A stretch of 64,000 nt of DNA from Obrimoposthia wandeli (taxonomy: Eukaryota). The position numbers and the translations under genes were made by a program. Within the stretch, counting starts at the first letter, position 1. Every line of letters begins with the position of its first letter. The notes under the pieces were generated by a model. That model had not been told where the DNA came from and searched no databases. It saw nothing but the letters and a program-made list of their open reading frames with translations. Below are positions 1 through 23,760 of the stretch, piece by piece. Location: positions 248,001-312,000 of the forward strand of contig CDROCS010000318.1 of NCBI GenBank assembly GCA_977020255.1, given 5' to 3'.

Positions 1-420
1 ATTTTTTTTTAAAAGTGGAAGCAATTTGAAATGTTTGAACAAAATCCTTTGGAGAAAATTCTGAAATGTTTGAAATAAATTCAGATAAGCATAAAGTCAA
101 TGAGAGTTAATAGCATAATTTTAAGCTCTGTTAGATTCATCAGTAACTTTCTTTTACAGGAATAATACGCTCATGTTCAATTATTGTGGCCATTGTTGTG
201 ATTTTTGAAATGTTTGTTTGTTAATTAACCACTCTGACTAATCAAAGGGTTTCGTCAGTAAATGTGTTTAATTGAAGTACAGACATGTCTGGTTGTCTGA
301 TTTGAAATTGGAATCAGTCAATCGTGTTGATATGTGCGTGTTGTTTTAACCAATTGCACATCGTGATTTGTAACTACACGCTCGTGGTGTACCCGTAAGT
401 GCTATATAATAGCAGTAGGT

Positions 421-659
421 GGAAGGATGGAGTCTAGACCAATTTACCCCCCATACTAAAGGGTGTCACTCCATAAGGATGTCACACCATAAAAGGTGTC
501 TTGCCACACCATAAGGGTATATGTTGCCTCACCTCTGGTGAGGCAACATATACCCTTATGGTGTGGCAAGACACCTTTTATGGTGTGACACCCTTATGGT
601 GTGACACCCTTTAGAGGGAGGGGGATGGGGGGGTAAATTGATCTAGACTCCATCCTTCC
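421..659. repeat. Terminal palindrome/hairpin, left (239 nt)
   Basis: 481-533 and 537-589 form a perfect 53-bp stem with a TCT loop. It extends to 456-614 with 2 mismatches. After a G-rich bulge, 421-451 pairs with ~629-659 (1 mismatch). Confidence 0.92.
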
Positions 660-699
660 TTGATATACTACTATGGTCGTCCATAGTTTAAAGGGTCAA

Positions 700-1075
700 T
701 TGGCTTAGTCTCCACCCTTCTTTTTGAGATATACCACTATGAAAGGGTCAATTGGCTTAGTCTCCACCCTTCTTTTAGTGGTCTAGTCTCCACCCATCTT
801 TTTGTGGTCTAGTCTCCACCCATCTTTTTGTGGTCTAGTCTCCACCCTTCTTTTAGTGATCTAGTCTCCACCCTTCTTTTAGTGATCTAGTCTCCACCCA
901 TCTTTTTGTGGTCTAGTCTCCACCCTTATTTTTGGTTAACCACTAATTCAAAGGATCAAGTGGCTTAGTCTCCACCCATCTCTTGTGGTCTAGTCTCCAC
1001 CCTTATTTTTGGTTAACCACTAATTCAAAGGATCAAGTGGCTTAGTCTCCACCCTTCTTTTTTGTGATCTAGTCC
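700..1075 (+). repeat. 26-bp subterminal repeat (core GTCTCCACCC), 11 copies
   Basis: Core at 708, 760, 786, 812, 838, 864, 890, 916, 968, 993 and 1045. Confidence 0.9.
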
Positions 1076-1596
1076 ATAATGAAAATTTATGATAAAGTTC
1101 ACACTTAACAATTAAGAATATATGACGTAATCATACACACACTATTTTATGTGAAAATCAAGGCTAAAGTTCACTCTTATCAGTTAAGGAATGTGGTTTT
1201 TAACACACACACTATTCTATGTGAAAGTTTAGATCAAATTATTTTCCTAGGTTTTCACATTTATAGAATTATGATAAAATTTCTTTAAATAACTTCAATT
1301 ATATATTAAAATAAAAATAAAATAAGAAAGAAGTCAGAGAATAATACAAAATTAAACACATTTATTATGTAATTTCATAATATCATCTTCAAACTTAAGT
1401 GAATAACATTTACAAAGTAAGAAAGTCCATTCTTTATACATTCTTTTCGTTTCAACGACTAAGTTACAACAGTATTAATAGAAAATTAGTAAAAATATTA
1501 ATTTATTTTGAATATTTGAATGTGAGTTTGAATAAATGAGAGGTAGAATGAATGTAAATGAATAAAATTATGCATGCAAGTATGAATGTCATTTAC

Positions 1597-2546
1597 AAGT
1601 AAGAGGGTTTAGCAAGTGAATGTAATTTTAAAAATAAGAGTGTCGATAGTTTGATTGAATGCAAGTGTAATTTAGACTATAAGTAAATTAAAATAGAGTT
1701 TTTGTTGAATAAATTATAGTTAGATTGAATGCAAGTATGACGAGCAAGTGATTGATAGTTTGAATTTTCAATACAAGTAAGTGGGTTTAGCAAGTGAATG
1801 TAATTTTAAAAAATAAGAGTGTCGATAGTTTGATTGAATGCAAGTGTAATTTAGACTATAAGTAAATTAAAATAGAGTTTTTGTTGAATAAATTATAGTT
1901 AGATTGAATGCAAGTATGACGAGCAAGTGATTGATAGTTTGAATTTTCAATACAAGTAAGTGGGTTTAGCAAGTGAATGTAATTTTAAAAATAAGAGTGT
2001 CGATAGTTTGATTGAATGCAAGTGTAATTTAGACTATAAGTAAATTAAAATAGAGTTTTTGTTGAATAAATTATAGTTAGATTGAATGCAAGTATGACGA
2101 GCAAGTGATTGATAGTTTGAATTTTCAATACAAGTAAGTGGGTTTAGCAAGTGAATGTAATTTTAAAAATAAGAGTGTCGATAGTTTGATTGAATGCAAG
2201 TGTAATTTAGACTATAAGTAAATTAAAATAGAGTTTTTGTTGAATAAATTATAGTTAGATTGAATGCAAGTATGACGAGCAAGTGATTGTTAGTTTGAAT
2301 TTTCAATACAAGTAAGTGGGTTTAGCAAGTGAATGTAATTTTAAAAATAAGAGTGTCGATAGTTTGATTGAATGCAAGTGTAATTTAGACTATAAGTAAA
2401 TTAAAATAGAGTTTTTGTTGAATAAATTATAGTTAGATTGAATGCAAGTATGACGAGCAAGTGATTGATAGTTTGAATTTTCAATACAAGTAAGTGGGTT
2501 TAGCAAGTGAATGTAATTTTAAAAATAAGAGTGTCGATAGTTTGAT
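1597..2546 (+). repeat. 178-bp satellite, 5 full units (left arm)
   Basis: Marker TGTCGATAG at 1641, 1820, 1998, 2176, 2354 and 2532. Confidence 0.95.
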
Positions 2547-2842
2547 TTTTTAAATTACTTGATATTTTTTTTGCCATTGTCCGTTTAATATAATATGAAT
2601 ATTCAATTTATTTCTTCAAAAATTCATTTTATATGTTAAATAATATTCTTTATCACATTATTGTGGTTTTTATCAAGTGATTTTAACCTTAAACTATAAA
2701 AATATTTTAATTATAAAGTTAGTTGCTGTACCCCGCCCACTGCATATAACATAAATTTCAAATATAAAGTACTATTAAGTTATTATTTCGAATAGTAAAT
2801 GTTTTTTCGAGTTATTTAATTTTGTTTACTAGACATTCGAAA

Positions 2843-5800
2843 ATTTACTTGTAAACTACAATATTTATTTGTTGTTGTATATATTTAGTTTAAAATGGTG
2901 TAAGTTATTACTTTAATATAATTTACAACCAAAACTTCAAATAGTTTACTTGTAAACTACAATATTTATTTGTTGTTGTATATATTTAGTTTAAAATGTT
3001 GTAAGTTATTACTTTAATATAATTTTCAACAAAAACTTCAAGTAGTTTACTTATTAAACATAAGTTTAATGTTTTGTACAATAAATTGACTTGTAAACAT
3101 AATTTATTTTGATATATTTTCAATTTAAAATGTTGTAAGTTATTACTTTAATATAATTTACAACAAAAACTTCAAGTAGTTTAAAATGTTACACAATAAA
3201 ATGTTTATTTGTAAGTTATTACTTTAATATAATTTTCAACAAAAAATTCAAGTAGTTTACTTATTAAACATAAGTTTAATGTTTTGTACAATAAATTGAC
3301 TTGTAAACATAATTTATTTTGATATATTTTCAATTTAATATGTTGTAAGTTATTACTTTAATATAATTTACAACAAAAACTTCAAGTAGTTTACTTATTA
3401 AACATAAGTTTAATGTTTTGTACAATAAATTGACTTGTAAACATAATTTATTTTGATATATTTTCAATTTAATATGTTGTAAGTTATTACTTTAATATAA
3501 TTTACAACAAAAACTTCAAGTAATTTACTTGTAAACTACAATATTTATTTGTTGTTGTATATATTTAGTTTAAAATGTTGTAAGTTATTACTTTAATATA
3601 ATTTTCAACAAAAACTTCAAGTAGTTTACTTATTAAACATAAGTTTAATGTTTTGTACAATAAATTGACTTGTAAACATAATTTATTTTGATATATTTTC
3701 AATTTAATATGTTGTAAGTTATTACTTTAATATAATTTACAACAAAAACTTCAAGTAGTTTACTTATTAAACATAAGTTTAATGTTTTGTACAATAAATT
3801 GACTTGTAAACATAATTTATTTTGATATATTTTCAATTTAATATGTTGTAAGTTATTACTTTAATATAATTTACAAAAAAAACTTCAAGTAATTTACTTG
3901 TAAACTACAATATTTATTTGTTGTTGTATATATTTAGTTTAAAATGTTGTAAGTTATTACTTTAATATAATTTTCAACAAAAAAACTTCAAGTAGTTTAC
4001 TTATTAAACATAAGTTTAATGTTTTGTACAATAAATTGACTTGTAAACATAATTTATTTTGATATATTTTCAATTTAATATGTTGTAAGTTATTACTTTA
4101 ATATAATTTACAACAAAAACTTCAAGTAGTTTACTTATTAAACATAAGTTTAATGTTTTGTACAATAAATTGACTTGTAAACATAATTTATTTTGATATA
4201 TTTTCAATTTAATATGTTGTAAGTTATTACTTTAATATAATTTACAACAAAAACTTCAAGTAATTTACTTGTAAACTACAATATTTATTTGTTGTTGTAT
4301 ATATTTAGTTTAAAATGTTGTAAGTTATTACTTTAATATAATTTTCAACAAAAACTTCAAGTAATTTACTTGTAAACTACAATATTTATTTGTTGTTGTA
4401 TATATTTAGTTTAAAATGTTGTAAGTTATTACTTTAATATAATTTTCAACAAAAATTTCAAGTAGTTTACTTATTAAACATAAGTTTAATGTTTGTACAA
4501 TAAATTGACTTGTAAACATAATTTATTTTTGATATATTTTCAATTTAATATGTTGTAAGTTATTACTTTAATATAATTTACAACAAAAACTTCAAGTAGT
4601 TTACTTATTAAACATAAGTTTAATGTTTTGTACAATAAATTGACTTGTAAACATAATTTATTTTGATATATTTTTAATTTAATATGTTGTAAGTTATTAC
4701 TTTAATATAATTTACAACAAAAACTTCAAGTAGTTTACTTATTAAACATAAGTTTAATGTTTTGTACAATAAATTGACTTGTAAACATAATTTATTTTGA
4801 TATATTTTCAATTTAATATGTTGTAAGTTATTACTTTAATATAATTTACAACAAAAACTTCAAGTAATTTACTTGTAAACTACAATATTTATTTGTTGTT
4901 GTATATATTTAGTTTAAAATGTTGTTAGTTATTACTTTAATATAATTTTCAACAAAAACTTCGAGTAGTTTACTTATTAAACATAAGTTTAATGTTTTGT
5001 ACAATAAATTGACTTGTTAACATAATATATTTATGCATATATTAACTTTAATATGTTGTAACTTATTACTTTAATATAATTTTCAACAAAAACTTCAAGT
5101 AGTTTACTTATTAATCATAAGTTTAATGTTTTGTACAATAATTTGACTTGTAAACATAATATATTTATGCATATATTAACTTTAATATGTTGTAACTTAT
5201 TACTTTAATATAATTTTCAACAAAAACTTCAAGTAGTTTACTTATTAATCATAAGTTTAATGTTTTGTACAATAAATTGACTTGTAAACATAATTTATTT
5301 TTGATATATTTTCAATTTAATATGTTGTAAGTTATTACTTTAATATAATTTACAACAAAAACTTCAAGTAGTTTACTTATTAAACATAAGTTTAATGTTT
5401 TGTACAATAAATTGACTTGTAAACATAATTTATTTTGATATATTTTCAATTTAATATGTTGTAAGTTATTACTTTAATATAATTTACAACAAAAACTTCA
5501 AGTAGTTTACTTATTAAACATAAGTTTACTTATTAAACATAAGTTTAATGTTTTGTACAATAAATTGACTTGTAAACATAATTTATTTTGATATATTTTC
5601 AATTTAATATGTTGTAAGTTATTACTTTAATATAATTTACAACAAAAACTTCAAGTAATTTACTTGTAAACTACAATATTTATTTGTTGTTGTATATATT
5701 TAGTTTAAAATGTTGTAAGTTATTACTTTAATATAATTTTCAACAAAAACTTCTAGTAATTTACTTGTAAACTACAATATTTATTTGTTGTTGTATATAT

Positions 5801-8157
5801 TTAGTTTAAAATGTTGTAAGTTATTACTTTAATATAATTTTCAACAAAAATTTCAAGTAGTTTACTTATTAAACATAAGTTTAATGTTTTGTACAATAAA
5901 TTGACTTGTAAACATAATTTATTTTTGATATATTTTCAATTTAATATGTTGTAAGTTATTACTTTAATATAATTTACAACAAAAACTTCAAGTAGTTTAC
6001 TTATTAAACATAAGTTTAATGTTTTGTACAATAAATTGACTTGTAAACATAATTTATTTTGATATATTTTCCATTTAATATGTTGTAAGTTATTACTTTA
6101 ATATAATTTACAACAAAAACTTCAAGTAGTTTACTTATTAAACATAAGTTTAATGTTTTGTACAATAAATTGACTTGTAAACATAATTTATTTTGATATA
6201 TTTTCAATTTAATATGTTGTAAGTTATTACTTTAATATAATTTACAACAAAAACTTCAAGTAATTTACTTGTAAACTACAATATTTATTTGTTGTTGTAT
6301 ATATTTAGTTTAAAATGTTGTTAGTTATTACTTTAATATAATTTTCAACAAAAACTTCGAGTAGTTTACTTATTAAACATAAGTTTAATGTTTTGTACAA
6401 TAAATTGACTTGTTAACATAATATATTTATGCATATATTAACTTTAATATGTTGTAACTTATTACTTTAATATAATTTTCAACAAAAACTTCAAGTAGTT
6501 TACTTATTAATCATAAGTTTAATGTTTTGTACAATAATTTGACTTGTAAACATAATATATTTATGCATATATTAACTTTAATATGTTGTAACTTATTACT
6601 TTAATATAATTTTCAACAAAAAACTTCAAGTAGTTTACTTATTAATCATAAGTTTAATGTTTTGTACAATAAATTGACTTGTAAACATAATTTATTTTTG
6701 ATATATTTTCAATTTAATATGTTGTAAGTTATTACTTTAATATAATTTACAACAAAAACTTCAAGTAGTTTACTTATTAAACATAAGTTTAATGTTTTGT
6801 ACAATAAATTGACTTGTAAACATAATTTATTTTGATATATTTTCAATTTAATATGTTGTAAGTTATTACTTTAATATAATTTACAACAAAAACTTCAAGT
6901 AATTTACTTGTAAACTACAATATTTATTTGTTGTTGTATATATTTATATATATTTAGTTTAAAATGTTGTAAGTTATTACTTTAATATAATTTTCAACAA
7001 AAACTTCAAGTAGTTTACTTATTAAACATAAGTTTAATGTTTTGTACAATAAATTGACTTGTAAACATAATTTATTTTGATATATTTTCAATTTAATATG
7101 TTGTAAGTTATTACTTTAATATAATTTACAACAAAAACTTCAAGTAATTTACTTGTAAACTACAATATTTATTTGTTGTTGTATATATTTAGTTTAAAAT
7201 GTTGTAAGTTATTACTTTAATATAATTTTCAACAAAAACTTCAAGTAGTTTACTTATTAATCATAAGTTTAATGATTTGATCAATAAATTGACTTGTAAA
7301 CATAATATAATTTGCATATTTTCAATTTAACACGTTGTAAGTTATTACTATAATATAACATTACAAAAAAAGTAATTAAACATAAGTTTACTGTTTTGTA
7401 AATAAATGACTTGTAAACATAATATATTTATACATATATTCACTTTAAAATGTTGTAAGTTATTACTTTAATATAATTTTCAACAAAAAAAAAAAAACTT
7501 CAAGTAGTTTACTTATTAAACATAAGTTTAATGTTTTGTACAATAAATTGACTTGTAAACATAATTTATTTTGATATATTTTCAATTTAATATGTTGTAA
7601 GTTATTACTTTAATATAATTTACAACAAAAACTTCAAGTAATTTACTTGTAAACTACAATATTTATTTGTTGTTGTATATATTCAGTTTAAAATGTTGTA
7701 AGTTATTACTTTAATATAATTTTCAACAAAAATTTCAAGTAGTTTACTTATTAATCATAATATTAATGATTGATCAATAAATTGACTTGTAAACATAATA
7801 TAATTTGCATATTTTCAATTTAACACGTTGTAAGTTATTACTATAATATTACATTACATAAAAAAGTAATTGATAGTTTACTATCGTTTACAATAAATTG
7901 ACTTGTAAACATAATATATTTATGCATATATTCACTTTAATATGTTGTAAGTTATTACTTTATTATAATTTTCAACAAAAACTTCAAGTAGTTTACTTAT
8001 TAAACATAAGTTTAATGTTTTGTACAATAAATTGACTTGTAAACATAATTTATTTTGATATATTTTCAATTTAATATGTTGTAAGTTATTACTTTAATAT
8101 AATTTACAACAAAAACTTCAAGTAATTTACTTGTAAACTACAATATTTATTTGTTGT

Positions 8158-8201
<44 letters not shown>

Positions 8202-8243
8202 GTTTAAAATGTTGTAAGTTAATACTTTAATATAATTTACAAA
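2843..8243 (+). repeat. AT-rich composite satellite (134-bp A units and 101-bp B units plus variants; about 40-45 units) with higher-order structure
   Basis: Units share the core ATGTTGTAAGTTATTACTTTAATATAATTT(T/A)CAACAAAAACTTCAAGTA. A: 3371 to 3505 = 134 bp; B: 3505 to 3606 = 101 bp. A (TA)n tract at ~8161-8198 lies in the last unit. Confidence 0.93.
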
Positions 8244-8823
8244 TATCGTAACAACCAAGTTAACTTACCAGATAACTGTGTAGTTAAGGTAATTTATCAT
8301 TTAGTCTGAAACAATGAATACCAAATCGCCTACAATGCATGTGTTGGGGTTTCTATACGAAACTTGGTATAGAGCCTCTTGAATGCGCGGAGGGCCCCAA
8401 CGTGAGTTCGATTAGAAGCAGGTCTTAAAGTTGGTCGTGGCCTACTTAGTGTTATGGTTGCCTAATCTCTTGTGCTATCTGAAGGTATTTGATTTGATGT
8501 CTCTTAGTCTGAAGGGTGTAAAAACAACTTGTTCTAATGTAGGAAATTGTTTATTCGTAATTCACGTAACTAACACAACAATACGTTTATGTACGTATTT
8601 CTAAAAAGTATGATAAAATTCCTAAAGGACTTCTGTAAGTCTCTACAAGAAGTGGGGATGAACCACGTATCGATTTTACGTTCAGGTGATTAAGTTTTTT
8701 AGGTTTAGTCTTCTTACTCAGGTTGGTTAATCTATAACGCAACTCTCTTAAATTTCTTCGCTCCTACTTCTTATCTCTAGATAATGTTTCTTGGTTCCTT
8801 AACTCTATCTGTGTGTGTTTGAC

Positions 8824-9258
8824 CCGAATTGTCTACTGTAAACAATGGGTCTCCTAAAAACCTAATTGTCAAGATGACAATGAAAACTTACTCCTAATTG
8901 TCAACTACGGACAATGAACGAACCGAATTGTCAGCTAGGGACAATGAGTCTTACCGAATTGTCTACTAGGGACAATGAGTATTTATCCGAATTGTCAACT
9001 AGGGACAATGAATGAACCTAATTGTCAGCTAGGGACAATGAATCTTACGGTAAAAAGTCTGGGTATGATTCCTAATTGTCGCTGGGGACAATGAATAAAT
9101 GTCAGATCTTAATTACCAACTAGGGGCAATGATTTTGTTAAAGAGTCGGATTGTCCTAATTGCCAGCTAGGGGCAATGAATTTGTGTATTAGTTTAAAAT
9201 GTAGAATTACCAACAAGGGGTAATGACAGTATCCTAATTGCCAACTAGGGGCAATGAA
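8824..9258. repeat. Array of 12 spaced palindromic motifs CC(G/T)AATTGTC-N7-GACAATGA with variable spacers
   Basis: Left arms start at 8828, 8865, 8897, 8927, 8958, 8991, 9021, 9075, 9112, 9159, 9206 and 9237. The loop is mostly 7 nt (A(A/G)CTAGG). Confidence 0.9.
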
Positions 9259-9471
9259 TAGTCTAGTTGGTGTTCTTACCAGTTACGGCAACTAGTGGGA
9301 CGTCCGATGCAGATCCGTAGGTTTTCCGGAATCCTCTTCGAAACAGAGATTGTCCCTTGCGTGAGGCTTGAGTACACGCTTGACCTGACCTTTGGATACT
9401 GGACAATTATTTTTTATTCAGATACTGAACAACTATTCTTTATTTACCTCGAATGCACTTCGGCTTGGTTT

Positions 9472-9774
9472 TTCTGGACACGTGGCCTTTTGGATAACAA
9501 TTATTGGACACTTGGCTTTTGGATAACGATTATTGGACACTTGGCTTTTTGGATAACGATTATTGGACACTTGGCTTTTCGGTTAACGATTATTGGACAC
9601 TGGGCTTTTCGGTTAACGATTATTGGACACTTGGCTTTTTGGTTAACGATTATTGGACACTTGGCTTTTTGGTTAACGATTATTGGACACTTGGCTTTTT
9701 GGTTAACGATTATTGGACACTTGGCTTTTTGGTTAACGATTATTGGACACTTGGCTTTTTGGTTAACGATTATT
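9472..9774 (+). repeat. 30-bp tandem repeat (TATTGGACACTTGGCTTTTTGGTTAACGAT), about 10 copies
   Basis: TATTGGACAC at 9502, 9531, 9561, 9591, 9621, 9651, 9681, 9711 and 9741, plus a degenerate copy near 9472. Confidence 0.95.
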
Positions 9775-9837
9775 CAATTTATCTAAAAACAAATTAATAC
9801 GGTCCAAAACCACCAAAAATTTACCGTTGTTCTCCGC

Positions 9838-10006
9838 CTAGTTGATTGCTCGTCCAGTTGATTGCTCGTAGTATTTTTATTTGTGACTTGTTGCTCTTTG
9901 GTTCTCCTTATATAAAGGCACTGTACGTCAATCAATTGACGGCTGCTTGACGATTTGGTTCGGCGATATCGGAGAGGCAAAATGGAATGTCAATCAATTG
10001 ACAGCT
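9838..10006. promoter_or_regulatory. Putative promoter or control region of the element
   Basis: Contains AGTTGATTGCTCG twice, a TATA-like TATATAAAG near 9909, and the palindrome GTCAATCAATTGAC twice (~9927, ~9990). Function is inferred only. Confidence 0.3.
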
Positions 10007-10957
10007 GGAATTGAAATTAGTCTATTGCACGAAAAAGTGCTTACCTTCTTGAATCCTTGATTGACGTGTTTAATTAACCGTTTTTTCTTAATTACTTCTA
10101 AATTGTCCCTTTTGGGTTAATTAATTTAACTTTTATACATTTTCGCATAATACACGACCTTCGTGGTCCTCCTAATTTTTACCCTAAATTCCACTAATTT
10201 TAATTCTAAAACTAAAATTAATATTTTAATCTAATTTTCAACCTTGCTTTCAAGGATTTTTATTTTAGTATTTAATCGACTAAAATATTTAATTTTCTTA
10301 ATTCTCAACCTTAACACATGTATAATTTAATTGTCAACTACAGTAAACTATAATTACTCTTTGTGTACAGTAATAATTTCCAATATATTAAAGTAAACAT
10401 TTACAAAATATAATCTGTTTACAAGTCAATTTATCATACAAATCCTTAAATTATGATTAATAAGTAAACTACTTGAAGTTTATTGTTGTAAATATATTAT
10501 GTTTACAAGTCAATTTATCGTACAAATCATTAATATTATGATTATTAAGTAAACTATTTGAAGTTTTGGTTGTAAATTATATTAAAGTAATAACTTACAA
10601 CATTTTAAACTAAATATATACAACAACAAATAAATATTGTAGTTTACAAGTAAATTTTCGAATGTCTAGTAAACAAAATTAAATAACTCGAAAAAACATT
10701 TACTATTCGAAATAATAAACTTAATAGTACTTTATATTTGAAATTTATGTTATATGCAGTGGGCGGGGTACAGCAACTAACTTTATAATTAAAATATTTT
10801 TATAGTTTAAGGTTAAAATCACTTGATAAAAACCACAATAATGTGATAAAGAATATTATTTAACATATAAAATGAATTTTTGAAGAAATAAATTGAATAT
10901 TCATATTATATTAAACGGGCAATGGCAAAAAAAAAATCAAGTAATTTAAAAAAAAAT

Positions 10958-13150
10958 CAAACTATCGACACTCTTATTTTTTAAAATTACATTCACTTGC
11001 TAAACCCACTTACTTGTATTGAAAATTCAAACTAACAATCACTTGCTCGTCATACTTGCATTCAATCTAACTATAATTTATTCAACAAAAACTCTATTTT
11101 AATTTACTTATAGTCTAAATTACACTTGCATTCAATCAAACTATCGACACTCTTATTTTTAAAATTACATTCACTTGCTAAACCCACTTACTTGTATTGA
11201 AATTCAAACTATCAATCACTTGCTCGTCATACTTGCATTCAATCTAACTATAATTTATTCAACAAAAACTCTATTTTAATTTACTTATAGTCTAAATTAC
11301 ACTTGCATTCAATCAAACTATCGACACTCTTATTTTTAAAATTACATTCACTTGCTAAACCCACTTACTTGTATTGAAAATTCAAACTATCTATCACTTG
11401 CTCGTCATACTTGCATTCAATCTAACTATAATTTATTCAACAAAAACTCTATTTTAATTTACTTATAGTCTAAATTACACTTGCATTCAATCAAACTATC
11501 GACACTCTTATTTTTAAAATTACATTCACTTGCTAAACCCACTTACTTGTATTGAAAATTCAAACTATCAATCACTTGCTCGTCATACTTGCATTCAATC
11601 TAACTATAATTTATTCAACAAAAACTCTATTTTAATTTACTTATAGTCTAAATTACACTTGCATTCAATCAAACTATCGACACTCTTATTTTTAAAATTA
11701 CATTCACTTGCTAAACCCACTTACTTGTATTGAAAATTCAAACTATCAATCACTTGCTCGTCATACTTGCATTCAATCTAACTATAATTTATTCAACAAA
11801 ACTCTATTTTAATTTACTTATAGTCTAAATTACACTTGCATTCAATCAAACTATCGACACTCTTATTTTTAAAATTACATTCACTTGCTAAACCCACTTA
11901 CTTGTATTGAAAATTCAAACTATCAATCACTTGCTCGTCATACTTGCATTCAATCTAACTATAATTTATTCAACAAAAACTCTATTTTAATTTACTTATA
12001 GTCTAAATTACACTTGCATTCAATCAAACTATCGACACTCTTATTTTTAAAATTACATTCACTTGCTAAACCCACTTACTTGTATTGAAAATTCAAACTA
12101 TCAATCACTTGCTCGTCATACTTGCATTCAATCTAACTATAATTTATTCAACAAAACTCTATTTTAATTTACTTATAGTCTAAATTACACTTGCATTCAA
12201 TCAAACTATCGACACTCTTATTTTTAAAATTACATTCACTTGCTAAACCCACTTACTTGTATTGAAAATTCAAACTATCAATCACTTGCTCGTCATACTT
12301 GCATTCAATCTAACTATAATTTATTCAACAAAAACTCTATTTTAATTTACTTATAGTCTAAATTACACTTGCATTCAATCAAACTATCGACACTCTTATT
12401 TTTAAAATTACATTCACTTGCTAAACCCACTTACTTGTATTGAAAATTCAAACTATCAATCACTTGCTCGTCATACTTGCATTCAATCTAACTATAATTT
12501 ATTCAACAAAACCTCTATTTTAATTTACTTATAGTCTAAATTACACTTGCATTCAATCAAACTATCGACACTCTTATTTTTAAAATTACATTCACTTGCT
12601 AAACCCACTTACTTGTATTGAAAATTCAAACTATCAATCACTTGCTCGTCATACTTGCATTCAATCTAACTATAATTTATTCAACAAAACTCTATTTTAA
12701 TTTACTTATAGTCTAAATTACACTTGCATTCAATCAAACTATCGACACTCTTATTTTTAAAATTACATTCACTTGCTAAACCCACTTACTTGTATTGAAA
12801 ATTCAAACTATCAATCACTTGCTCGTCATACTTGCATTCAATCTAACTATAATTTATTCAACAAAAACTCTATTTTAATTTACTTATAGTCTAAATTACA
12901 CTTGCATTCAATCAAACTATCGACACTCTTATTTTTTAAAATTACATTCACTTGCTAAACCCACTTACTTGTATTGAAAATTCAAACTATCAATCACTTG
13001 CTCGTCATACTTGCATTCAATCTAACTATAATTTATTCAACAAAAACTCTATTTTAATTTACTTATAGTCTAAATTACACTTGCATTCAATCAAACTATC
13101 GACACTCTTATTTTTAAAATTACATTCACTTGCTAAACCCTCTTACTTGT
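10958..13150 (-). repeat. 178-bp satellite, 12 full units (right arm)
   Basis: Marker CGACACT occurs 13 times from 10966 to 13100, spaced 177-179 bp. Confidence 0.95.
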
Positions 13151-13669
13151 AAATGACATTCATACTTGCATGCATAATTTTATTCATTTACATTCATTCT
13201 ACCTCTCATTTATTCAAACTCACATTCAAATATTCAAAATAAATTAATATTTTTACTAATTTTCTATTAATACCGTTGTAACATAGTCGTTGAAACGAAA
13301 AGAATGTATAAAGAATGGACTTTCTTACTTTGTAAATGTTATTCACTTAAGTTTGAAGATGATATTATGAAATTACATAATAAATGTGTTTAATTTTGTA
13401 TTATTCTCTGACTTCTTTCTTATTTTATTTTTATTTTAATATATAATTGAAGTTATTTAAAGAAATTTTATCATAATTCTATAAATGTGAAAACCTAGGA
13501 AAATAATTAGATCTAAACTTTCACATAGAATAGTGTGTGTGTTAAAAACCACATTCCTTAACTGATAAGAGTGAACTTTAGCCTTGATTTTCACATAAAA
13601 TAGTGTGTGTATGATTACGTCATATATTCTTAATTGTTAAGTGTGAACTTTATCATAAATTTTCATTAT

Positions 13670-14020
13670 GGACTAGATCACAAAAAAGAAGGGTGGAGAC
13701 TAAGCCACTTGATCCTTTGAATTAGTGGTTAACCAAAAATAAGGGTGGAGACTAGACCACAAGAGATGGGTGGAGACTAAGCCACTTGATCCTTTGAATT
13801 AGTGGTTAACCAAAAATAAGGGTGGAGACTAGACCACAAAAAGATGGGTGGAGACTAGATCACTAAAAGAAGGGTGGAGACTAGATCACTAAAAGAAGGG
13901 TGGAGACTAGACCACAAAAAGATGGGTGGAGACTAGACCACAAAAAGAAGGGTGGAGACTAAGCCAATTGACCCTTTCATAGTGGTATATCTCAAAAAGA
14001 AGGGTGGAGACTAAGCCAAT
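13670..14020 (-). repeat. 26-bp subterminal repeat (GGGTGGAGAC), 10 copies
   Basis: Core at 13691, 13743, 13768, 13820, 13846, 13872, 13898, 13924, 13950 and 14002. Confidence 0.9.
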
Positions 14021-14059
14021 TGACCCTTTAAACTATGGACGACCATAGTAGTATATCAA

Positions 14060-14299
14060 GGAAGGATGGAGTCTAGATCAATTTACCCCCCCCCATCCCC
14101 CTCCCTCTAAAGGGTGTCACACCATAAGGGTGTCACACCATAAAAGGTGTCTTGCCACACCATAAGGGTATATGTTGCCTCACCAGAGGTGAGGCAACAT
14201 ATACCCTTATGGTGTGGCAAGACACCTTTTATGGTGTGACATCCTTATGGAGTGACACCCTTTAGGGGGGGGGTAAATTGGTCTAGACTCCATCCTTCC
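14060..14299. repeat. Terminal palindrome/hairpin, right (240 nt)
   Basis: Mirror copy of 421-659, centred on CCTCACC-AGA-GGTGAGG. Confidence 0.92.
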
Positions 14300-15038
14300 A
14301 CCTACTAATAGCCCGACGATTGTTGTAATTGTTTTTCTGTATGTGCATGTAAAAAGGAAAATATGATGAAAATTCTGACTGCGATGGTGAGTGTGAGGAT
14401 TGTAATAAACAAAGAGCTGAGGTGATAAATCTGAAATTTTGGATAAGTAGAGAAACAATGAAAAGGTCAGTTTAAGTGGTGATGAAATTAGTGTAATGCA
14501 CGTTTATTTTGAAAACAAAGTTGATGATCAAGTTATCTTTATTTCATGGTTATTGTGTTATAATGCTACTCATGTTCCCGAAAAACTTTATCTTTATGTG
14601 TGAATAATTTGTGCATCACGTCGACCACGAAGTTAACAGTGTTCAATTGTATGTATTTGGTATTGACAACTTAAAATGATTCTAATTATGACGATCTTTG
14701 AAAGGTTATTCTTAATTTTTATCATTAATTAAACATACTATGTGAATTTATTGGATAGTGGTACTTAGAAATTAAAACATAATTTGGCAGATAAAATATA
14801 GTTACCTCTATAGCAGAAGTGTCCAGACGTTTTCAGGCGCGAGTAAAATCAATGATTCTCTTAATCTTTAAGTCAAAAACTTCTTCAAAAAATCGAAAAT
14901 GATTATTTTTGGATCTTTTCAGTTTTTATAATAAACAAATAAAATTCATAAATTTTCTAATATTATCAGATTTCAGTTAAAATTTGTCCAAAAATACATC
15001 CACTGTTATATTTTACCTTACTTTACCTTACTCCAAAG

Positions 15039-15423
15039 GAACTGGCTCCAATAAGAGTATATCGTGGTGCAATGAGTCCTGGATATGAACTTATTCTTTA
15101 TCTTGGCGTTCCCCTAAGTACTTGCAATTGTGTGTGTGTGCTGATGTTTGTAAGTCTATGGAATTATTACTATTATTTACTGTCAGAGGAATAATATTTG
15201 TATTATTCTTCAAATATGTATATGCCTTCCAAAAATCTGATACAATCGTTTTCCCAGATAAATTAAAGCTTTAAATTGTATCCACTAATGAAACATTGTT
15301 TTATTTCTCGACATATGACACCAGATACCCATTGATTTGGCAGCTGGTAAACAATATGGTTATTTTGACCTGAGCAACAGCTCTCATCTATCTCAACAAC
15401 AATTCCGGGCCTCCAATCGATGA
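15039..15423 (+). CDS. Possible last two exons (15039-15149, 15325-15423) of an unidentified plus-strand gene
   Basis: AG/GT-bounded, phase-0 compatible frames: ELAPIRVYRGAMSPGYELILYLGVPLSTCNCVCVLMF + IPIDLAAGKQYGYFDLSNSSHLSQQQFRASNR*. No family recognised. Confidence 0.3.
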
Positions 15424-15949
15424 TTATAACTGATCATCTCAGAGTTAGTTCGCTCAATCCACAACGATGCAAGGGTTAATATCAAATTCTTCTTCACAAA
15501 AGCATACGGTGCTATATTCGTTGACTATCAATAAATATATAATACAAATTTATGGTAGGGAAGTCGGGACTCTTCAAGCCAAGTTTATTTCCTTAGCGAC
15601 TTTTCTTTGCGGTATCCATTCCGACGACATCGCCATCTATCATGTCGATCTATTAAGTTCAAAGTCATGTCTTCAGAGAAATTCAAATATGTAGGAGGAA
15701 TACTTACTCTCTGTAAGAGCGAACGATACTTTTATTGTCGTTGCATTCTTGTATTAACTTCAGCAACTTCATCGTCAACGAAACAAAATTTCAAAAATGT
15801 AACTAAATAAAACAAACGTTTTAGCAAATAACATTTAAAACAACAATTAAACTGATTTCATTAAATGGCTTAAAACTAGTTATATGATAAAAATACTATT
15901 GACCTGCATGTTTCTGATATTTTAAAATGAAAAGAGAAATATTGCTAAC

Positions 15950-16069
15950 CATATCATAATCCTTGAAATATGGTGCGATGTTGATTCGTCGCTGCTTCAC
16001 CTGTTCTTTCATAGCATTAAGGATAACAGATATTTTCTTCTCCTCGTTTAATGACAGATTCTGTAGAGC
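15950..16069 (-). CDS. EF-hand-like repeat protein, exon 7 (3' end of gene unresolved)
   Basis: Follows a 43-nt intron; encodes ALQNLSLNEEKKISVILNAMKEQVKQRRINIAPYFKDYDM; GTTAGC donor. Exons 1-7 total 390 codons. Confidence 0.75.
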
Positions 16070-16112
16070 CTGTTGAGAAATTAGTCTCGATGCAGTTCTC
16101 CAATAGAATTAC

Positions 16113-16186
16113 CCTTGATAAAGACCCACTCGGAGGATAGGGAGCTTCTTTCAGAGGATCTTTCTCCATATTCAGCACATGGAAAG
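16113..16186 (-). CDS. EF-hand-like repeat protein, exon 6
   Basis: TTTTCTAG acceptor; encodes (P)FHVLNMEKDPLKEAPYPPSGSLSR; phase-consistent. Confidence 0.75.
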
Positions 16187-17576
16187 CTAGAAAACAATTA
16201 ATTCCAATAAAATTTGTTTTAGAGTTTAAGGGATTTTGACATTCAGATTCAAGTGAACGTCTTAAAACTTTGTTTGGAATTCACTGTACGTTCATTTCTA
16301 TAATCATCAACGTATAAGCCTCCTACTTACATTTAAAATTATTAACGGTGAACTATAGGTGAAACATAGGATAATGTAAGCTTAAATTGTCATGGGGATA
16401 TTGAAAAAGATATTATATACGAATTCCTAGTGGACCATGTTTGATACGCAGAACTGACGACCTAGAGAACGGGAATATCTGAGTGAGCAGTAATAAATAT
16501 CGTATCTATCCAAATCGATATTCACATCATGTTTATTAGATGATAATTCTACAAACTTAGTAACAATATAGATAAGGGAAGACGGAAAATTACATTTGTA
16601 CTTATGAAATAAAAGAAGAAAAGATTCGGATGATATAAATTTTCTTAATAGAATTCAAAATTTTCAATTCAATTTTAATAAATTCAATAATAAATTCTTT
16701 CATATTTTTATCAAAAATTTTATAAAGAATCTCATTTAATTTTGTAGAAATTACGTTTGTAAAATATGTTAAGCGATAAAGATTGTTAACTTATTTCAAT
16801 TTTATAAGAAAAATATTAATATGTTATTTGTTTAATTTGTTTGAACCTTCTAAAATTACACATAAAGTTTAATATGAATTCCATTAAAGATTATTTTAGA
16901 AAATACTTTTTTTATTGACTATATTTATTCATTTATTTAAATGATAAAGTTAATCTAGTTTTTTGTTTCTAAGTTATATACATTTAATTAATTATAACTA
17001 TTTCAAAAGAATCAGTATTAGCTATATTTTATAATTTTTTTTGTATAGTACATTTAAAATTTATCTGTAATATATTATTGAATAAATATATTGAAATTAA
17101 TCATATGCATTATTATTTAAATTAGTAATAATTAAAAAGACTGTTTTGTAATATATTTACAATAATTTCTAAAGTTATTTGCAATATTATTTTAATATAA
17201 CAAATTATAGAAAATAATATTTAAAACTGTACATTTATAACTTTTAACTTAATACAGATAGGTCGTTAAAAACTATACAGAATTATTTTAATTAATCATT
17301 TTGTTGCTTGATTTTTTAATAATTTTTGTCCAATTTGATTTGTGACCGAAAATGTATGAAATTTGTTGATACATATAACAACGGTTAGAATATACTAATA
17401 AAAACATGTCGCAAATAGTTCACGAGTGTATTGTGTCGACAAACTTTGACTCGTGTATGAAATGGGTTAAATAAGCGACACTGTCCATTGGTTCGCAGAT
17501 CAATCTGACATTATTGCACCAGGTTGAAAGTTATCGACGGTAAACGGGGCAACTACAATGAGATTTTTCCACTTAC

Positions 17577-17773
17577 GATTATCCATGTTACGGCAGAAAT
17601 CGCGATAAGAAACAAATCCATCCGGTCGTCGATAATAATTGGCCAGTTTCTGAATCTCGCCTCGGGCCAATCCGGACTCCCGGCCAATGGCCATGCTCAG
17701 GGCACACACAAATTGGTTCTCAGTGACTGAGTCATGTCTGAGTTTGTCATGATCCACAAAGAAATCCATGATC
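17577..17773 (-). CDS. EF-hand-like repeat protein, exon 5
   Basis: Encodes (R)IMDFFVDHDKLRHDSVTENQFVCAL...DGFVSYRDFCRNMDN; GTAAGT donor, phase 1. Repeats the D-x-D-K-L-R-x-x-x-V-T-x-x-Q-F motif of exons 1-2. Confidence 0.85.
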
Positions 17774-18822
17774 CTGCGTGAGCATTGTTAAATTATAAAT
17801 TGGTTTTAAGGCTTCGATTTGATGTAAATTGAATATTTTCGAAACCAATAATATGTCTTATTTTAGATAAGCTTTTTAAATGTGTTAAAATATTAAATCT
17901 CTTAAATGATAATGAAAAACGTTTGGTACTGGAAGGATTAGAATTCCTTTCAAATTTACAGTAATTAAAAAGTTGTTGAATAAAACAAAGAAAAAGTGTA
18001 TTGGATCAACGTACACTAGCAAGGGAAAATTTTGAAAGTGTAATACTGTTAAATTGACGAGATTAAAATCCTTGATATATATAAGAGAAAAAGTAATAAA
18101 AAAGTTATGAATTTAGTTTTAAGTCAAACATTTCAAATTATTTGTTTATCTAAACGAAAGTTATTTAAAATTTTGTTTAAACATAAAATAAACTATTTTG
18201 AAAGTTATAATATTTTTTAATAATATAAACTTTAGTTTCAGTTATTTGAAAAATAGTATAACTTATTTATTAGAATAACCTATATACACAGTTACAGAAA
18301 ATAATTATTTCGAAACAAGTTTCGTTTCAATTTTTGTTAATTTCAGAGCATTAAAATAAAATTTGATTGTTTATTTCCAAATTTCTTCATTTTTCATGGT
18401 ATTTAGCAGATGAATGATAAAAATGATATCTTATAAATATTTACTTTTATTTAAAATTGATAAACTTAATATTCAGAAATGCCCAGTTGCGATTATTTCC
18501 TTGTTAAAAAATGCAAAACGGGCTTCAAAGTCAAAATCTATAATATTGAAATTAAAAACATTGTAAAAATTTAGATTTGAATTTAAGTTACAAATAAATT
18601 AAACTGTAAGGATATGTAATTATAAATTGAAGAGTATAACTAAAATAAGAAAATGCTTTTCAAATCGAAAAATAATAATAACAGAGGCCTAAATTTCATC
18701 CATATTAGACTTTTAAATTAAGCTTCAATGCAGTAGAATTGAAAACTATGTAAACTTGAGGTAAAGACGTAGACTATATAGGGAACAAGCAACTGCTTCG
18801 TCCAAACCTGCAACCATGAGTA

Positions 18823-20612
18823 CACCTATTGTAACTTAGTAAGTTATACTAAGTCAATTAGTAAGTTAGAATCACTTAAACGTGATTAGATCATTTAATT
18901 ACCAATGTAATTGCAAATGATTTAAGTGGTTTTAACTTATTTGTAGTTTAACTTATTTAACAGTTTAATGTTATTTTATACACTTTAACTGTTTTTAAAC
19001 TTTAAATTTTACAGTTAAACGTGATTTTATTATATAATTTATATTTATTATAATTATATAATGATTTAACTGTTTTTTGGATATAAAGTTTAAAAAGGAA
19101 TGAAGAAAAAATAAATAGAAATGTTATATTTATAATACATAGTTATAAAATGGATTCTTTCTTCATGTATCGCGGAAAGAATTTTTTTATGTGACTGTAA
19201 TGAGAAGTTACATCTTGGTTTGAGGAATCAATCAGTACGCCAGCGATACTTTCGCGGATTTTAAATATTTTTTCCTCCGATGAAGCTTGCAGCATACCAG
19301 CAGTCCGCGTAAGTTTCTTCCTCACATCACTTTTCACTTTAGAAAAAACCGTTTCAATAGGGTTTAAAAGGGACTGTAAGGGGGTAAATTTACAATTTTG
19401 TGGAGTGATGAGGTGGTGAGTGTCCGATTGTGGATACTGGCGTTGTCATGGATAAGATAATGTTGGGTATCTGGTAATCGTAGAGACAGATCTGCTACGA
19501 AAGCTTGATAAAGTAAATGGGTAAACGATCCTGCTACAACTTCAGAATGTACAGGACCCTGTTTTGAAATTGCCATGACGAGGCTTAGTGATCGGGATCG
19601 AGCTGGGACGGTATGGTATATACGAAGTCCCCGTCGAGATCGACCCATTCTTTGTCTTGTCCAGACATTTATAGACGTTTCATCTATATAGATGCATTCT
19701 TTGGACTTCCAACCTTCTTCCATCAATTTTGTTACGTATTCGCAACGCAAATCTTTTACGGCATCTGAGTTTTGCCAACTACAGAGTACCTTATTTTCTT
19801 CCGGGTGACAAGTTGACCTTTTAAAAAATTAGCGATTGTTTTCATGCTGGGACTAATATTGTGATTTTCTGCCACGAACATATTAATCTCATTTAAAGTA
19901 GCTGTGTTGTTGGCGTCCAGAAAACATAAAATTGCTTCACCGATAGTTTCGGTTATTAATTTGTGCCGATAACCTCCAACATGTCCAGTTGACAGAACTT
20001 CATTCTTATTGTACCTTTTAGAATAATAATTTTAAAAATTCAAATGAAATACCTGGACACTAAATTGTATATGGACCCCGAACACTGGTAGCCCAACATC
20101 TTAGCTAATGATACATAATCATGTCCTTCATGATAACATTTTATGATTCTTTCCTTATCTATACGAGAAATTCTATAAAAAATAAAGATATGTTAAATGT
20201 TAAAAAACAAACTTTTGTCGAGATTTAAGTGGTGTAGGCTGACTAGGTCCATCCAAATCATTAAATCGGAAAGGAAATGTACGCTCAGACTCTACACTCG
20301 ATATATTTGAAAGGTTTTCATACATTTTTAATATACCTAATCTAACTTAGTAAGTTCTTTTTAACTTAGTAAGTTGCTATCAAATTGTGCCTCTCGGTGG
20401 GTTTTGATTGGATTGTTATTATTTTCAAATCCACGTATGTATGTGGTATTTTATTTTTACCTGTATTTTAATCTAATAACCTATTTTTAATTTAGTAACT
20501 TGGCCAGAAACTCAGTTGTACCCAATTCAGGCTATGTGATTCTATTCAAATATCAAATGCAGGTATTAATTTAGTAACTTATCTAATTTAATTTACTAAT
20601 TTACAATAGGCG
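18823..20612 (-). mobile_element. IS630/Tc1-superfamily DNA transposon (~1.8 kb) in intron 4 of the EF-hand gene
   Basis: Imperfect TIRs CCTATTGTAA(C/A)TTAGTAA at 18825 and 20610; TA on the left flank only; subterminal TTAGTAAGTT repeats; internal DDE transposase. Confidence 0.8.
19143..20000 (-). pseudogene. Frameshifted Tc1/IS630-like DDE transposase
   Basis: Motifs IYIDET, LIHDNASIH and LPPYSPF-(L)NPIE. There is a 1-nt loss in a T-run near 19366 and another frameshift near 19780. Confidence 0.85.
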
Positions 20613-20786
20613 TCGTAGATTTGACAATCAATGTTGGAATTGAGAAAGTGAAAACAAACAGAACAGAAAAGGATACTTTTGTAAAATAAATTATCATTAG
20701 TTACTCTCTACTTGTAGTTTGGAGTGAGTACACGGATAACGCATCTGACTACAGGTCGAAAGAAGCCCACAATACCAAAGCCCAAC

Positions 20787-21070
20787 CTGATACCGCGCTT
20801 GTGGACAGTGAAGCGGATTCTGTCCTCGATCATCTGCACCGATGGACTGTCACACCGTTCTTGGGGCAGCATTCTGGCCGCTCGAGCTGTATCCTCGGTG
20901 GTGTTGAGCACCGCCATCTGTTGTAGCCTGATGTCTTCTATGGCCACAAGGTCGTTGTGCAGATTCAGGTAGTTGATCATTGTTGGATTCTCAGGGTGTC
21001 TGTATTTGCGAACTAGCAGAGTTAGTTCTGTGTCAGTGATGTCCTTGGGACCCGGAAATCCGCGGTAGAA
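20787..21070 (-). CDS. EF-hand-like repeat protein, exon 4
   Basis: TTTCTGCAG acceptor; encodes FYRGFPGPKDITDTELTLLVRKY...INYLNLHND...IEDRIRFTVHKRGI(R); GTTGGG donor, phase 2. Confidence 0.82.
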
Positions 21071-21369
21071 CTGCAGAAATAGGAATTTCCAGTGCGGAGT
21101 TTGAAGATACGGGAGAAAATTGAATTTTTAGTCATTTAATCAATCGCGTGAAAGAATTTATCGATGGAAAATATTTGTGTATTTCATAAATTGTAATTGA
21201 AATAAAGGTAAACTAGGTATACAATATTGTATGCAACTACATGTACTATATGTACTAAGAGAATAAATACTTTTATTGTTTAGTTAAGCATTTACATTTA
21301 TCTTCATAAGATAATTATAATAGAAAGAGATAGAAGGATATATAAAGGAGATAAATCCAAAAAACGAAC

Positions 21370-21535
21370 CTGTGTTTCAGTGATGAGCCCGATGTTATGG
21401 ACGTCAAAGTCCCGATAGGAATTGCGGATTGTGAATCCCTGGTATTCGTAGAATTGATTGAGTCGCTGTAGTATTGGCAACAGTCGAGCCTCAGATTCAG
21501 GTGAGAGTGGTCGTACAGAACGTACTTGACCAAGG
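21370..21535 (-). CDS. EF-hand-like repeat protein, exon 3
   Basis: CAG acceptor; encodes (Y)LGQVRSVRPLSPE...RNSYRDFDVHNIGLITETQ; GTTCGT donor, phase 0. Confidence 0.85.
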
Positions 21536-22294
21536 CTGTGTTTGAGAGAACGAATAAATATGGTCAAAACCTTTACAAAACTTTCATTATTTACCAAAAT
21601 GTCCACTGAAAGTATATCAACTCAACATAAGCCTAACGAATGTGAGTTAAATCGAAATAAGTAGCTTGCGTATACAAATAAAAAACTTGCAAAAATAATT
21701 AATTAGTTCTTTTAAATCAACTTAAATGGGTTCATCACCCAAGACGTTATTAAAGAGGCAAAAATGCTAAATTTCTGTTCATGTCGATTTTTAGTTGAAA
21801 TATCTCCGAACCTTTGCAGTCTATCTAAATGAAACTTGATAGGTGCAGTCAAAACATTTCCTACCTTTCCAAATTTATGTGCGTTGGGTGTGTGAAAGAG
21901 CCCGCTAAAAATAGGAATTTCAATATTGTGTAGGTAGATGGTTGAAATACTAGTTTTTCCCGTCTTGGGTTGAAATATCTCCCGAAGTCAAGGAAACTTT
22001 GCAGACGTAACTTAGACATCAATTGCCATTTCCGTAGGAAATTGTAGTCAAATGTAATACTTAAATATTAGGGAAATGAACATTCTTTTAATCTCGTCAG
22101 GAAAAAAGACTTTAAAAGTTTGGTTTAAATCATCGTTTAATAGCAGCAAAACTCGCTTATATATTCAAAAGTAATTTATTTGTCAGTGTGTAATATTTTC
22201 TACATATTAATTATTTTGTAGAATCGTTTCTATGAAACAACATAGAGCATCAATAATTATATCAAAGATTGCTAAAACATTCCTTCACACTTAC

Positions 22295-22490
22295 TATTCC
22301 GGAGTGTTCTTTATCTGATCAGCAGGATTAATGTGCATCAAATGAGGATCGAATTTCCCATCAACTTCTTCACAGAATCTGCGCCAATTCATCTTCTGTC
22401 CGTCACTATACCGACCCACTAATTCCTGCTCCTCTTGTTCAGAAAATTTCACACCCATATTCTGCCACAATATTCTAAAAAATTGGTTGT
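22295..22490 (-). CDS. EF-hand-like repeat protein, exon 2
   Basis: Follows a 45-nt intron; encodes NNQFFRILWQNMGVKF...MNWRRFCEEVDGKF...KNTPE; GTAAGT donor, phase 2. Confidence 0.85.
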
Positions 22491-22535
22491 CTTTTTTAAA
22501 ATAATTTTTAAACATTTGATAGAAAAAATATGTAC

Positions 22536-22668
22536 TTGTAACAAATCCAGATCGCAATTTATCAAAATCCAAAAAATATTCATTGATTCTGATACTTTTT
22601 ACATCACATGTTTCTTTTAACTTACCTTCAATATTAAATTGAGAAGTTGGTGCAACACAAGCTGACAT
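22536..22668 (-). CDS. EF-hand-like repeat protein, exon 1
   Basis: ATG at 22668; encodes MSACVAPT...IRINEYFLDFDKLRSGFVT; GTACAT donor, phase 1. Confidence 0.8.
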
Positions 22669-23349
22669 TTGAAGTTATTAAAGTTTAAAGATTACTGTTA
22701 AATTTAACTTTAAATTAATTCCTTATTCTCGTTCTTATAGTTACTGAGTATTAAAACAATAACAGTGAATCTCGAAATTCAAATGTTTTCAAAATCAATT
22801 TCAAATATTAAATTTTGCAATTTTAAAAAATATATATAAAACTATAAATAGCAACAACAATGAAAGTATTTGATTAATTTAAGTTGATAATTTTTTTTAT
22901 AAAAGTTTATTAGTTTACCATTATTTTACTTTCGTCAAAATTACAGAATTGTTTAGCAGAGTTGGAACCGGCCATTAAACCCACCCCCGGCCGATATTGG
23001 CCGGTAAATAAAATATTAATTTATGAAAGCTTTTATATTTTTTCAATATTTTAGAAAGCATCTTTATGTGAGAGCACTTGTATTCAATCTTTGATTTAAA
23101 AAATTAATATTAATTTCGTTGACATTTTTGCTTTTTATTAATCTGTTCGTAAGAAAGACTCTAGTTCGAGAGTTCTCAACAGTATATGACTGGTATGTAT
23201 ATGAGTGAGGCAAAAAGGTCAAGTTGGTCATAAAGTTTGACAAGGATTAAAGTCTAATTTAGGATTACCGACCCCATCTTTGATACGACGTAATGAAATT
23301 AGTGTAATTTCTTCTTTTTTTTTTGAACATATCTTTACTGCTTGGTACA

Positions 23350-23760
23350 GCCCCTATCGACCTATCGACAACATCAAGTTTTTGAATATCAAAATATCTG
23401 ACAATAACAGCCAAAATCTGTGCTACTGTGATATCTGTACATTTATCTATTAGCATCGAAAATTGATTAGTTTTGCAAATATTAGAAATGTTTAATTTTT
23501 TGTGATAGGATAAGCCTTCTTGTATAATATTAAAAAAACTTTGATAGCCTTCATATTTACCTGTTTTACAATTTGACTATCATGGAATACTTTCTTACAT
23601 GCTTTCACAAGGTGATCACATACTGCAAAGGGCAAATTGTGTTCAGAAATGAAAGTCTCAATTATTAATTCTGCCTTTCCTGTTATTTCACTATCCGTTG
23701 GTTTACATGTGTTGGGAATGGAGAAGAGGTGTATTTATATTTTTGGGATAGTTAAATTTA
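23350..23760 (-). pseudogene. hAT transposase fragment
   Basis: Reads ...FISEHNLPFAVCDHL... then FSMLIDKCTDITVAQILAVIVRYFD, resembling the hAT IIDESTD...LAVxIRYFD segment. Confidence 0.6.

Follow-up and report, generated by a model that had tools for sequence, protein, structure and literature searches.

Terminal palindromes bounded by end motifs in a gene-less, Maverick-like element of Obrimoposthia wandeli

Terminal palindromes in described systems

The terminal hairpins of parvoviruses and AAV underlie a rolling-hairpin mechanism, and the replication of Mavericks has, to our knowledge, been modelled and not shown. The closest described counterparts of the arrangement reported here belong to the protist Halocafeteria seosinensis, in which all complete members of endogenous virophage subtypes 1, 2, 5 and 6 and of PLV subtype 4 are described as carrying palindromes in TIRs that adjoin TSDs (10.64898/2026.07.28.741278). 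In the main text of that report, the palindromes are associated with non-pPolB replicases and hairpin priming after excision is proposed, so that the hairpin-priming idea is already in print as an explicit model for protists (10.64898/2026.07.28.741278). The same main text mentions neither an inner end motif nor flip and flop isomers, and the supplements may detail such ends.

For Mavericks and Polintons, TIRs of 100-1,500 bp have been described (PMC10748475), and the canonical Maverick end motif is taken here, as stated in PMC8097293, to be (AGT)2//(ACT)2 or (AG)3//(CT)3. In the openly accessible literature searched, terminal hairpins were reported for no animal Maverick, and the terms "hairpin" and "palindrom" are absent from the main text of the animal Maverick/adintovirus papers PMC8097293, PMC10748475 and PMC8502044. 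Bidnavirus ITRs, for their part, are described as forming no hairpins (PMC4061559).

The element and its ends

The window, that is, the whole 64-kb stretch of DNA that was analysed, contains one element with the following layout.

408-413, unstranded: left 6-bp TSD AATAGC, same as 14307-14312
414-14306, unstranded: whole element, 13,893 bp, without genes, ~73% tandem arrays (10,108/13,893 bp)
414-2950, plus strand: left TIR, inner end approximate
1594-2547, plus strand: 178-bp tandem array of the left TIR, 5.4 copies
2844-8242, plus strand: AT-rich 101/134-bp composite tandem array
8243-10400, unstranded: non-coding core; holds nine dyad repeat sites (8828-9255) plus a 30-bp array (9475-9774)
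10550-14306, minus strand: right TIR, inner end approximate
10955-13151, minus strand: 178-bp tandem array of the right TIR, 12.4 copies
14307-14312, unstranded: right 6-bp TSD AATAGC

With the animal Mavericks and Polintons, as these are described in PMC8097293, PMC10748475 and PMC8502044, the element shares a 6-bp TSD, AGT..ACT ends, long TIRs and a size (13.9 kb) inside their range of 12.7-24.6 kb; unlike them, it has no genes, longer TIRs (~2.5 kb at the left and ~3.7 kb at the right) and an outer AGTAGG instead of (AGT)2. Since a 6-bp TSD, here AATAGC on either side, together with AGT..ACT ends is given as the Maverick signature (PMC8097293), we treat it as a non-autonomous Maverick-like element, by its ends only. 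Neither pPolB nor an RVE integrase was found in the ORF list of the element or in a Pfam scan of its core, so that it would be at most a non-autonomous derivative, and none of its ORFs is a HUH Rep/NS1 nickase. Its single ORF of at least 100 aa crosses the 30-bp array, and as to coding remnants, none of the 30 core fragments scanned (31 were listed) reached the Pfam cut-off, seven having sub-threshold, unrelated matches. The two TIRs differ by 10 substitutions across ~2,540 aligned nt, two of which fall in the C run of the hairpin; otherwise they differ mainly in repeat number, including seven extra 178-bp units at the right.

There is no further copy of the element within the 64-kb window; blastn of 414-760 gave no match in the phage or plasmid sets, exact-pattern scans of GTDB genomes returned 0 loci, and Rfam gave 0 matches across 400-14400. 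A composite of two independent mini-elements was considered and rejected, because the inner end runs into an array-unit homologue and then into 2.5 kb of shared TIR. Within the core, nine ATTG(T/C)C-N7-G(A/G)CAAT dyads (8828-9255), mostly ~30 bp apart, resemble a protein-binding array or an internal origin, and at 9900-10020 a TATA-like CCTTATATAAAGG is followed by two GTCAATCAATTGAC dyads, possibly the leftover promoter of the parent element.

Each terminus of the element is occupied by a long hairpin, whose parts and immediate surroundings are listed below.

414-420, plus strand: left terminus AGTAGGT, beyond the main stem; starts with AGT, short of a full (AGT)2
421-533, plus strand: left outer hairpin arm, with one inverted array motif copy (425-436), a C run and GGTGT-N-ACACC iterons
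534-536, plus strand: left hairpin loop TCT; the right loop also reads TCT, outside-in
537-659, plus strand: left inner hairpin arm, with an intact 16-bp iteron repeat (578-611)
616-633, plus strand: G-quadruplex-type motif covering the bulge and the G run, inner arm only
667-672, minus strand: inner end motif, AGTAGT on this strand; bounds the palindrome on the inside and is a candidate resolution site
670-687, unstranded: small hairpin (7 bp) that overlaps the inner end motif, with its mirror at 14032-14049
690-1074, plus strand: left subterminal array, 26-bp and 51/52-bp units with TAG(A/T)CTCCA(C/T)CC; diverged copies of the inner-arm base
13671-14030, minus strand: right subterminal array
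14047-14052, plus strand: right inward-facing AGTAGT end motif
14060-14299, plus strand: right hairpin (inner arm 14060-14184, loop 14185-14187, outer arm 14188-14299)
14086-14105, minus strand: right G4 motif, in the right hairpin
14300-14306, plus strand: right terminus ACCTACT, the 3' flap of the plus strand

A sequence-only reading of this DNA had described a perfect stem around a 3-nt loop and counted 53 bp in it; stem and loop are there, and the left stem measures 54 bp (480-533/537-590, around TCT at 534-536). Its lengthening to 78 bp (456-533/537-614) was borne out, with two mismatches, at 470 and 479. The G-rich bulge that had been placed in the inner arm is also present, ~9-10 nt long and inside a G-rich tract (614-633), with the qualification that on either single strand only the 5' hairpin has a G-rich bulge, that of the 3', potentially priming, hairpin being C-rich. 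Beyond the bulge, a base stem (421-454/625-659) with one mismatch (439) and a 1-nt bulge measures 32-34 bp, where ~31 bp had been estimated, and leaves outside the main stem the seven bases (414-420) already counted to the element end. The equal structure expected at 14060-14299 was found, with a 54-bp perfect stem and a 13-nt bulge, and left and right hairpins differ only in C/G runs. The run lengths (453-455, 627-633, 14086-14094 and 14266-14274; 6/7 at the left, 9/9 at the right) agree more closely inside one hairpin than from one end to the other, which hints weakly at copying between arms or at an assembly error.

Folding of the termini as DNA, a check proposed with the first description, gave -125.7 kcal/mol at the left and -133.7 kcal/mol at the right (z of -27.0 and -27.8), and 0/200 shuffles at each end were as stable, which argues that the hairpins are not due to chance. 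The next-longest perfect stem anywhere in the 64 kb reaches at most 19 bp, such stems being all (TA)n. The hairpin had been delimited to 421-659; it is real, but the whole palindrome extends over 414-672 (259 bases) at the left and 14047-14306 at the right, with an end motif bounding both sides. Its inner boundary is a canonical Maverick (AGT)2 pointing inward (ACTACT at 667-672), whereas the outer ends, AGTAGG..CCTACT, match (AGT)2 at 5/6 positions. On the plus strand of the element ACTACT occurs at two places only, 667 and 10468, and the chance of finding one within 20 positions is ~0.007. An assembly or amplification chimera was rejected, the arms differing at identical sites at both ends and the TSD being exact.

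The base of the hairpin belongs to the subterminal repeat array. The motif TAG(A/T)CTCCA(C/T)CC has 25 exact copies in the 64 kb, every one in the TIRs (12 forward and one inverted at the left, 11 and one at the right), and the inverted copy lies at each terminus. The inner-arm base aligns with the next 52-bp unit through 37 matches and nine substitutions (9/46), and ACCACT homologues of the inner ACTACT are found in three array units per TIR; from these alignments, the subterminal array reads as degenerate copies of the element end, facing inward. Both hairpin arms carry GGTGT-N-ACACC iterons, each of them itself a short dyad, and these, together with the array, are putative sites that would probably be bound by proteins. 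The 16-bp iteron repeat is perfect (100%) in the inner arm and falls to 88% in the outer arm, the only one in which two iteron substitutions disrupt it. The G4 pattern has two matches in the 64 kb, both in the inner arms (G4Hunter 2.3 and -2.6).

This anatomy can be set against the described systems. Like the H. seosinensis elements, the present one has a palindrome in a TIR adjoining the TSD; those are gene-bearing protist elements with, in subtype 5, a 52-nt palindrome, whereas here the element is gene-less and the palindrome spans 259 bp (main text of 10.64898/2026.07.28.741278). An imperfect, bubbled terminal palindrome, iterated stem motifs and, facing the 3' end, a candidate resolution site are shared with parvovirus and AAV ends as described in PMC9896142 and PMC4061559. 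The foldable palindromes of a rolling-hairpin system are present at both ends; unlike parvoviruses and AAV, the element is integrated with a TSD, is 13.9 kb long, has no HUH Rep/NS1, offers a 7-nt flap for a paired 3' end, and displays no isomers between the two ends of its one copy.

Poxvirus flip/flop telomeres (PMC8956199) and telomere-resolvase ends (PMC13236599) are likewise described as a mismatched hairpin followed by tandem repeats within an inverted repeat. Those ends are covalently closed and their replicated junction mirrors the whole genome end (PMC8956199, PMC13236599), whereas here the symmetry breaks off after 120-136 nt, and GC-rich hairpins sit at ends that are open and integrated. 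A junction of the protelomerase or poxvirus kind was rejected for this reason: in hairpin telomeres of the poxvirus or N15 type the symmetry runs through the whole end, and at this locus it is too short, stopping at 414/672. Finally, Galileo (PMC4168063) and Muta1 (PMC5499845) resemble the element in their long modular TIRs with tandem subterminal repeats, and are described with other termini and TSDs of 7-10 bp, the terminal palindrome of Muta1 being only 10 bp.

Possible readings: recurrent priming, fold-back accident or binding platform

When both TIR ends are placed on one strand, the zipped panhandle (-446.4 kcal/mol) is favoured by 76 kcal/mol over hairpin feet plus stem (-370.3 kcal/mol). 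The "panhandle with hairpin feet" initially imagined, whose hairpins do fold, would therefore be only a kinetic state, in which hairpins would fold first and then be reabsorbed through branch migration. Because of the arm mismatches, moreover, the open duplex end is the equilibrium state and the hairpins would be transient. The last four 3' bases (TACT) are paired, mostly with the inner AGTA, with probabilities of 0.11, 0.26 and 0.45 at 37, 25 and 15 °C, and in the minimum-energy fold the seven 3' bases are unpaired, the natural 3' end being mostly an unpaired 7-nt flap. Self-priming is thus possible, though not built in as in parvoviruses. The idea of self-priming or resolution put forward in the sequence-only reading is a reasonable lead; it gains from the protist precedent and from the inward (AGT)2, and loses from the mostly unpaired 3' end and the single isomer.

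The arms differ from each other at 3/112 positions at the right and 4/113 at the left, and divergence increases from TIR against TIR, through arm against arm, to inner base against array unit; this order makes the palindrome older than the last TIR homogenisation and implies that both ends kept it through one or more transpositions. The arm differences spare the central 54 bp (P 0.048 for five events; P 0.16 for the three substitutions alone). The outer-versus-inner differences are alike at both ends, so that the comparison for flip and flop that had been called for, made here on the two ends of a single copy, yields the same isomer at 2/2 ends.

We tentatively read the locus as a non-autonomous Maverick/Polinton-type element whose end-to-end palindromes would be used for hairpin-primed copying with hairpin transfer, a helper acting in trans, and we hold this to be possible, if somewhat short of probable. 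The layout is the one that fold-back synthesis from a 3' end would leave if cutting at an inward-facing end motif terminated it. Starting from the observed anatomy (a gene-less element with a 6-bp duplication and with a palindrome that has an end motif on each side), the steps that we infer would run as follows. The ends would be freed by a helper integrase (step 1); the 3' ends would fold back, and their last bases, weakly paired to the inner AGTAGT, would serve as primers (step 2); a cut in the template strand, immediately 5' of that AGTAGT, would pass the hairpin to the new strand, the old end being then refilled in flipped orientation (step 3); and flip and flop ends would both be substrates of the integrase (step 4). 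Since the inner boundary carries (AGT)2 pointing inward, a flipped end would likewise start with AGTAG, which hairpin transfer requires; with AGTAG at either boundary, the integrase should accept flip and flop ends alike.

Several features speak for recurrent priming: end motifs stand on both boundaries of the palindrome, the inner one being a canonical (AGT)2; the 3'-terminal TACT pairs preferentially with the inner end motif; the palindrome predates TIR homogenisation and has persisted at both ends; and the arm differences avoid the centre, which is not significant for substitutions alone. Jump-back protein priming, as in adenovirus and phi29, uses trinucleotide reiteration; the outer end AGTAGG has none, which favours hairpin priming. 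Long palindromes at both ends are, besides, likely sites of host breakage. If hairpin priming is used, copies would be expected with swapped arms and with the TSD abutting the inner motif, a prediction that calls for alignment only, and integrase-using animal DNA viruses would be linked to parvovirus-style end resolution. By analogy, the terminal palindromes of the protist relatives, tied to non-pPolB replicases, may point to recurrent priming as well; the main text describing them (10.64898/2026.07.28.741278) does not mention the swapped-arm and TSD prediction. We regard as rather unlikely the wider proposition that an animal Maverick lineage swapped protein priming for rolling-hairpin replication, with the integrase or a partner nuclease as terminal resolvase at the inward (AGT)2, flip and flop ends both integrating, and gene-less 14-kb repeat satellites exploiting such ends.

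Other observations go against recurrent priming, and several of them suit a frozen accident. According to this alternative, which is a possible, if doubtful, account, a single fold-back of a TIR end (an inverted duplication) made the outer arm, the end-like motif so copied was cut by the integrase, copy-correction in the panhandle spread the arrangement to both ends, and an ordinary protein-primed helper would still replicate the element. Both ends are indeed one isomer, with no flip/flop evidence; the polarisable differences lie on the outer arm, the pattern expected of copying on a single occasion, and so do the substitutions that break the 16-bp iteron repeat; the outer end lacks the segment common to the inner end and the array unit; and the inner ACTACT can be explained as an array-unit feature, since three array units of each TIR have ACCACT, without supposing that a cut site has been maintained there. 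The open panhandle is, furthermore, the equilibrium form, more stable than hairpin feet. Against recurrent priming there is also the 3' end, unpaired in the minimum-energy fold of the hairpin; trimming of the flap followed by extension should, moreover, have replaced the outer end by inner sequence, and no such replacement is seen. Neither a helper nor a second copy came out of the window or of the phage, plasmid and GTDB searches. On the other side, perfect 54-bp palindromes with so short a spacer (3 nt) are unstable in the genomes of eukaryotes, and this one nonetheless persisted through ~3% arm divergence; the duplication would also have to stop exactly at an end motif. Fold-back inverted duplication at DNA ends is described as a known outcome of repair, but the fold-backs reported are mostly of 5-34 bp (PMC11724301), against 120 bp here. 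The animal Mavericks described so far in PMC8097293 and PMC10748475 encode pPolB, which suits an accident better than recurrent hairpin priming, and accidental annealing is named as an alternative by the H. seosinensis authors themselves (10.64898/2026.07.28.741278). Were the accident the correct account, the locus would show transposon ends being rebuilt out of fold-backs and subterminal arrays.

It is unlikely that the palindrome serves only as a duplex dyad platform (or cruciform), in which iterons and array motifs would bind an integrase or an origin protein and the element would move without single-strand self-priming. The confinement of all 25 exact copies of the array motif to the TIRs, with one inverted at each terminus, would fit such a platform, as would the short dyads that the iterons form and the nine dyad repeats that the core adds, and the binding of the MULE Muta1 transposase is described as governed by a terminal palindrome and subterminal repeats (PMC5499845); however, short dyads suffice for binding (10 bp in Muta1), which asks for nothing like 110 bp of unbroken pairing up to a 3-nt loop. 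Very unlikely, lastly, is a cut-and-paste element of the foldback type, with long modular TIRs and from another DDE superfamily, for although the diagnostic Maverick genes are absent and the repeat-filled TIRs of ~2.5 and 3.7 kb exceed the 46-1,447 bp given for vertebrate Mavericks, the 6-bp TSD and AGT..ACT ends suit Mavericks (PMC8097293), and TSDs are described as 7-8 bp in Galileo (PMC4168063) and 8-10 bp in MULEs (PMC5499845).

Insertion site and neighbouring DNA

The host DNA has ~28% GC and exon-split genes, and the target site lies within a short host palindrome, GCTAT-ATA-ATAGC (401-413 and 14307-14312). To the right of the element, at 15914-22668 on the minus strand, is a multi-exon host EF-hand gene with 244 relatives in a profile-free search, to which residues 1 to ~398 of ~930-aa relatives map. 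For its C-terminal half, 26 queries gave 0 matches in 1-413, 14307-15950 and the element, so that the element probably sits in an intron of this gene.

Other transposase-like sequences lie elsewhere in the window. A broken Tc1/IS630-type transposase (DDE_3, E 9e-12) lies within an intron of the EF-hand gene (19143-20031, minus strand), an uninterrupted 657-aa hAT transposase-like ORF (PF05699) at 29390-31363, and a broken pogo/Tigger-type transposase (HTH_Tnp_Tc5) at 40532-41496. Two fragments, at 23265-23734 and 58830-59078 (minus strand), look like relics of hAT-type transposases; Pfam gave no match for either. A broken reading frame at 57097-57424 (minus strand) looked to us like the C-terminus of a Polinton-type pPolB, a resemblance that found no support in the ESM Atlas, in Pfam, in the PDB or in homolog and plasmid searches.

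Farther along, 51309-56493 holds a MICAL-like/EHBP-type host gene with a weak bMERB match (E 0.015, below cut-off); we take its LIM-like finger and NPF motifs as a MICAL-like resemblance. Upstream of the EF-hand gene there is also a 130-bp direct repeat (23811-23940 and 24524-24652) with 96% identity between its copies.
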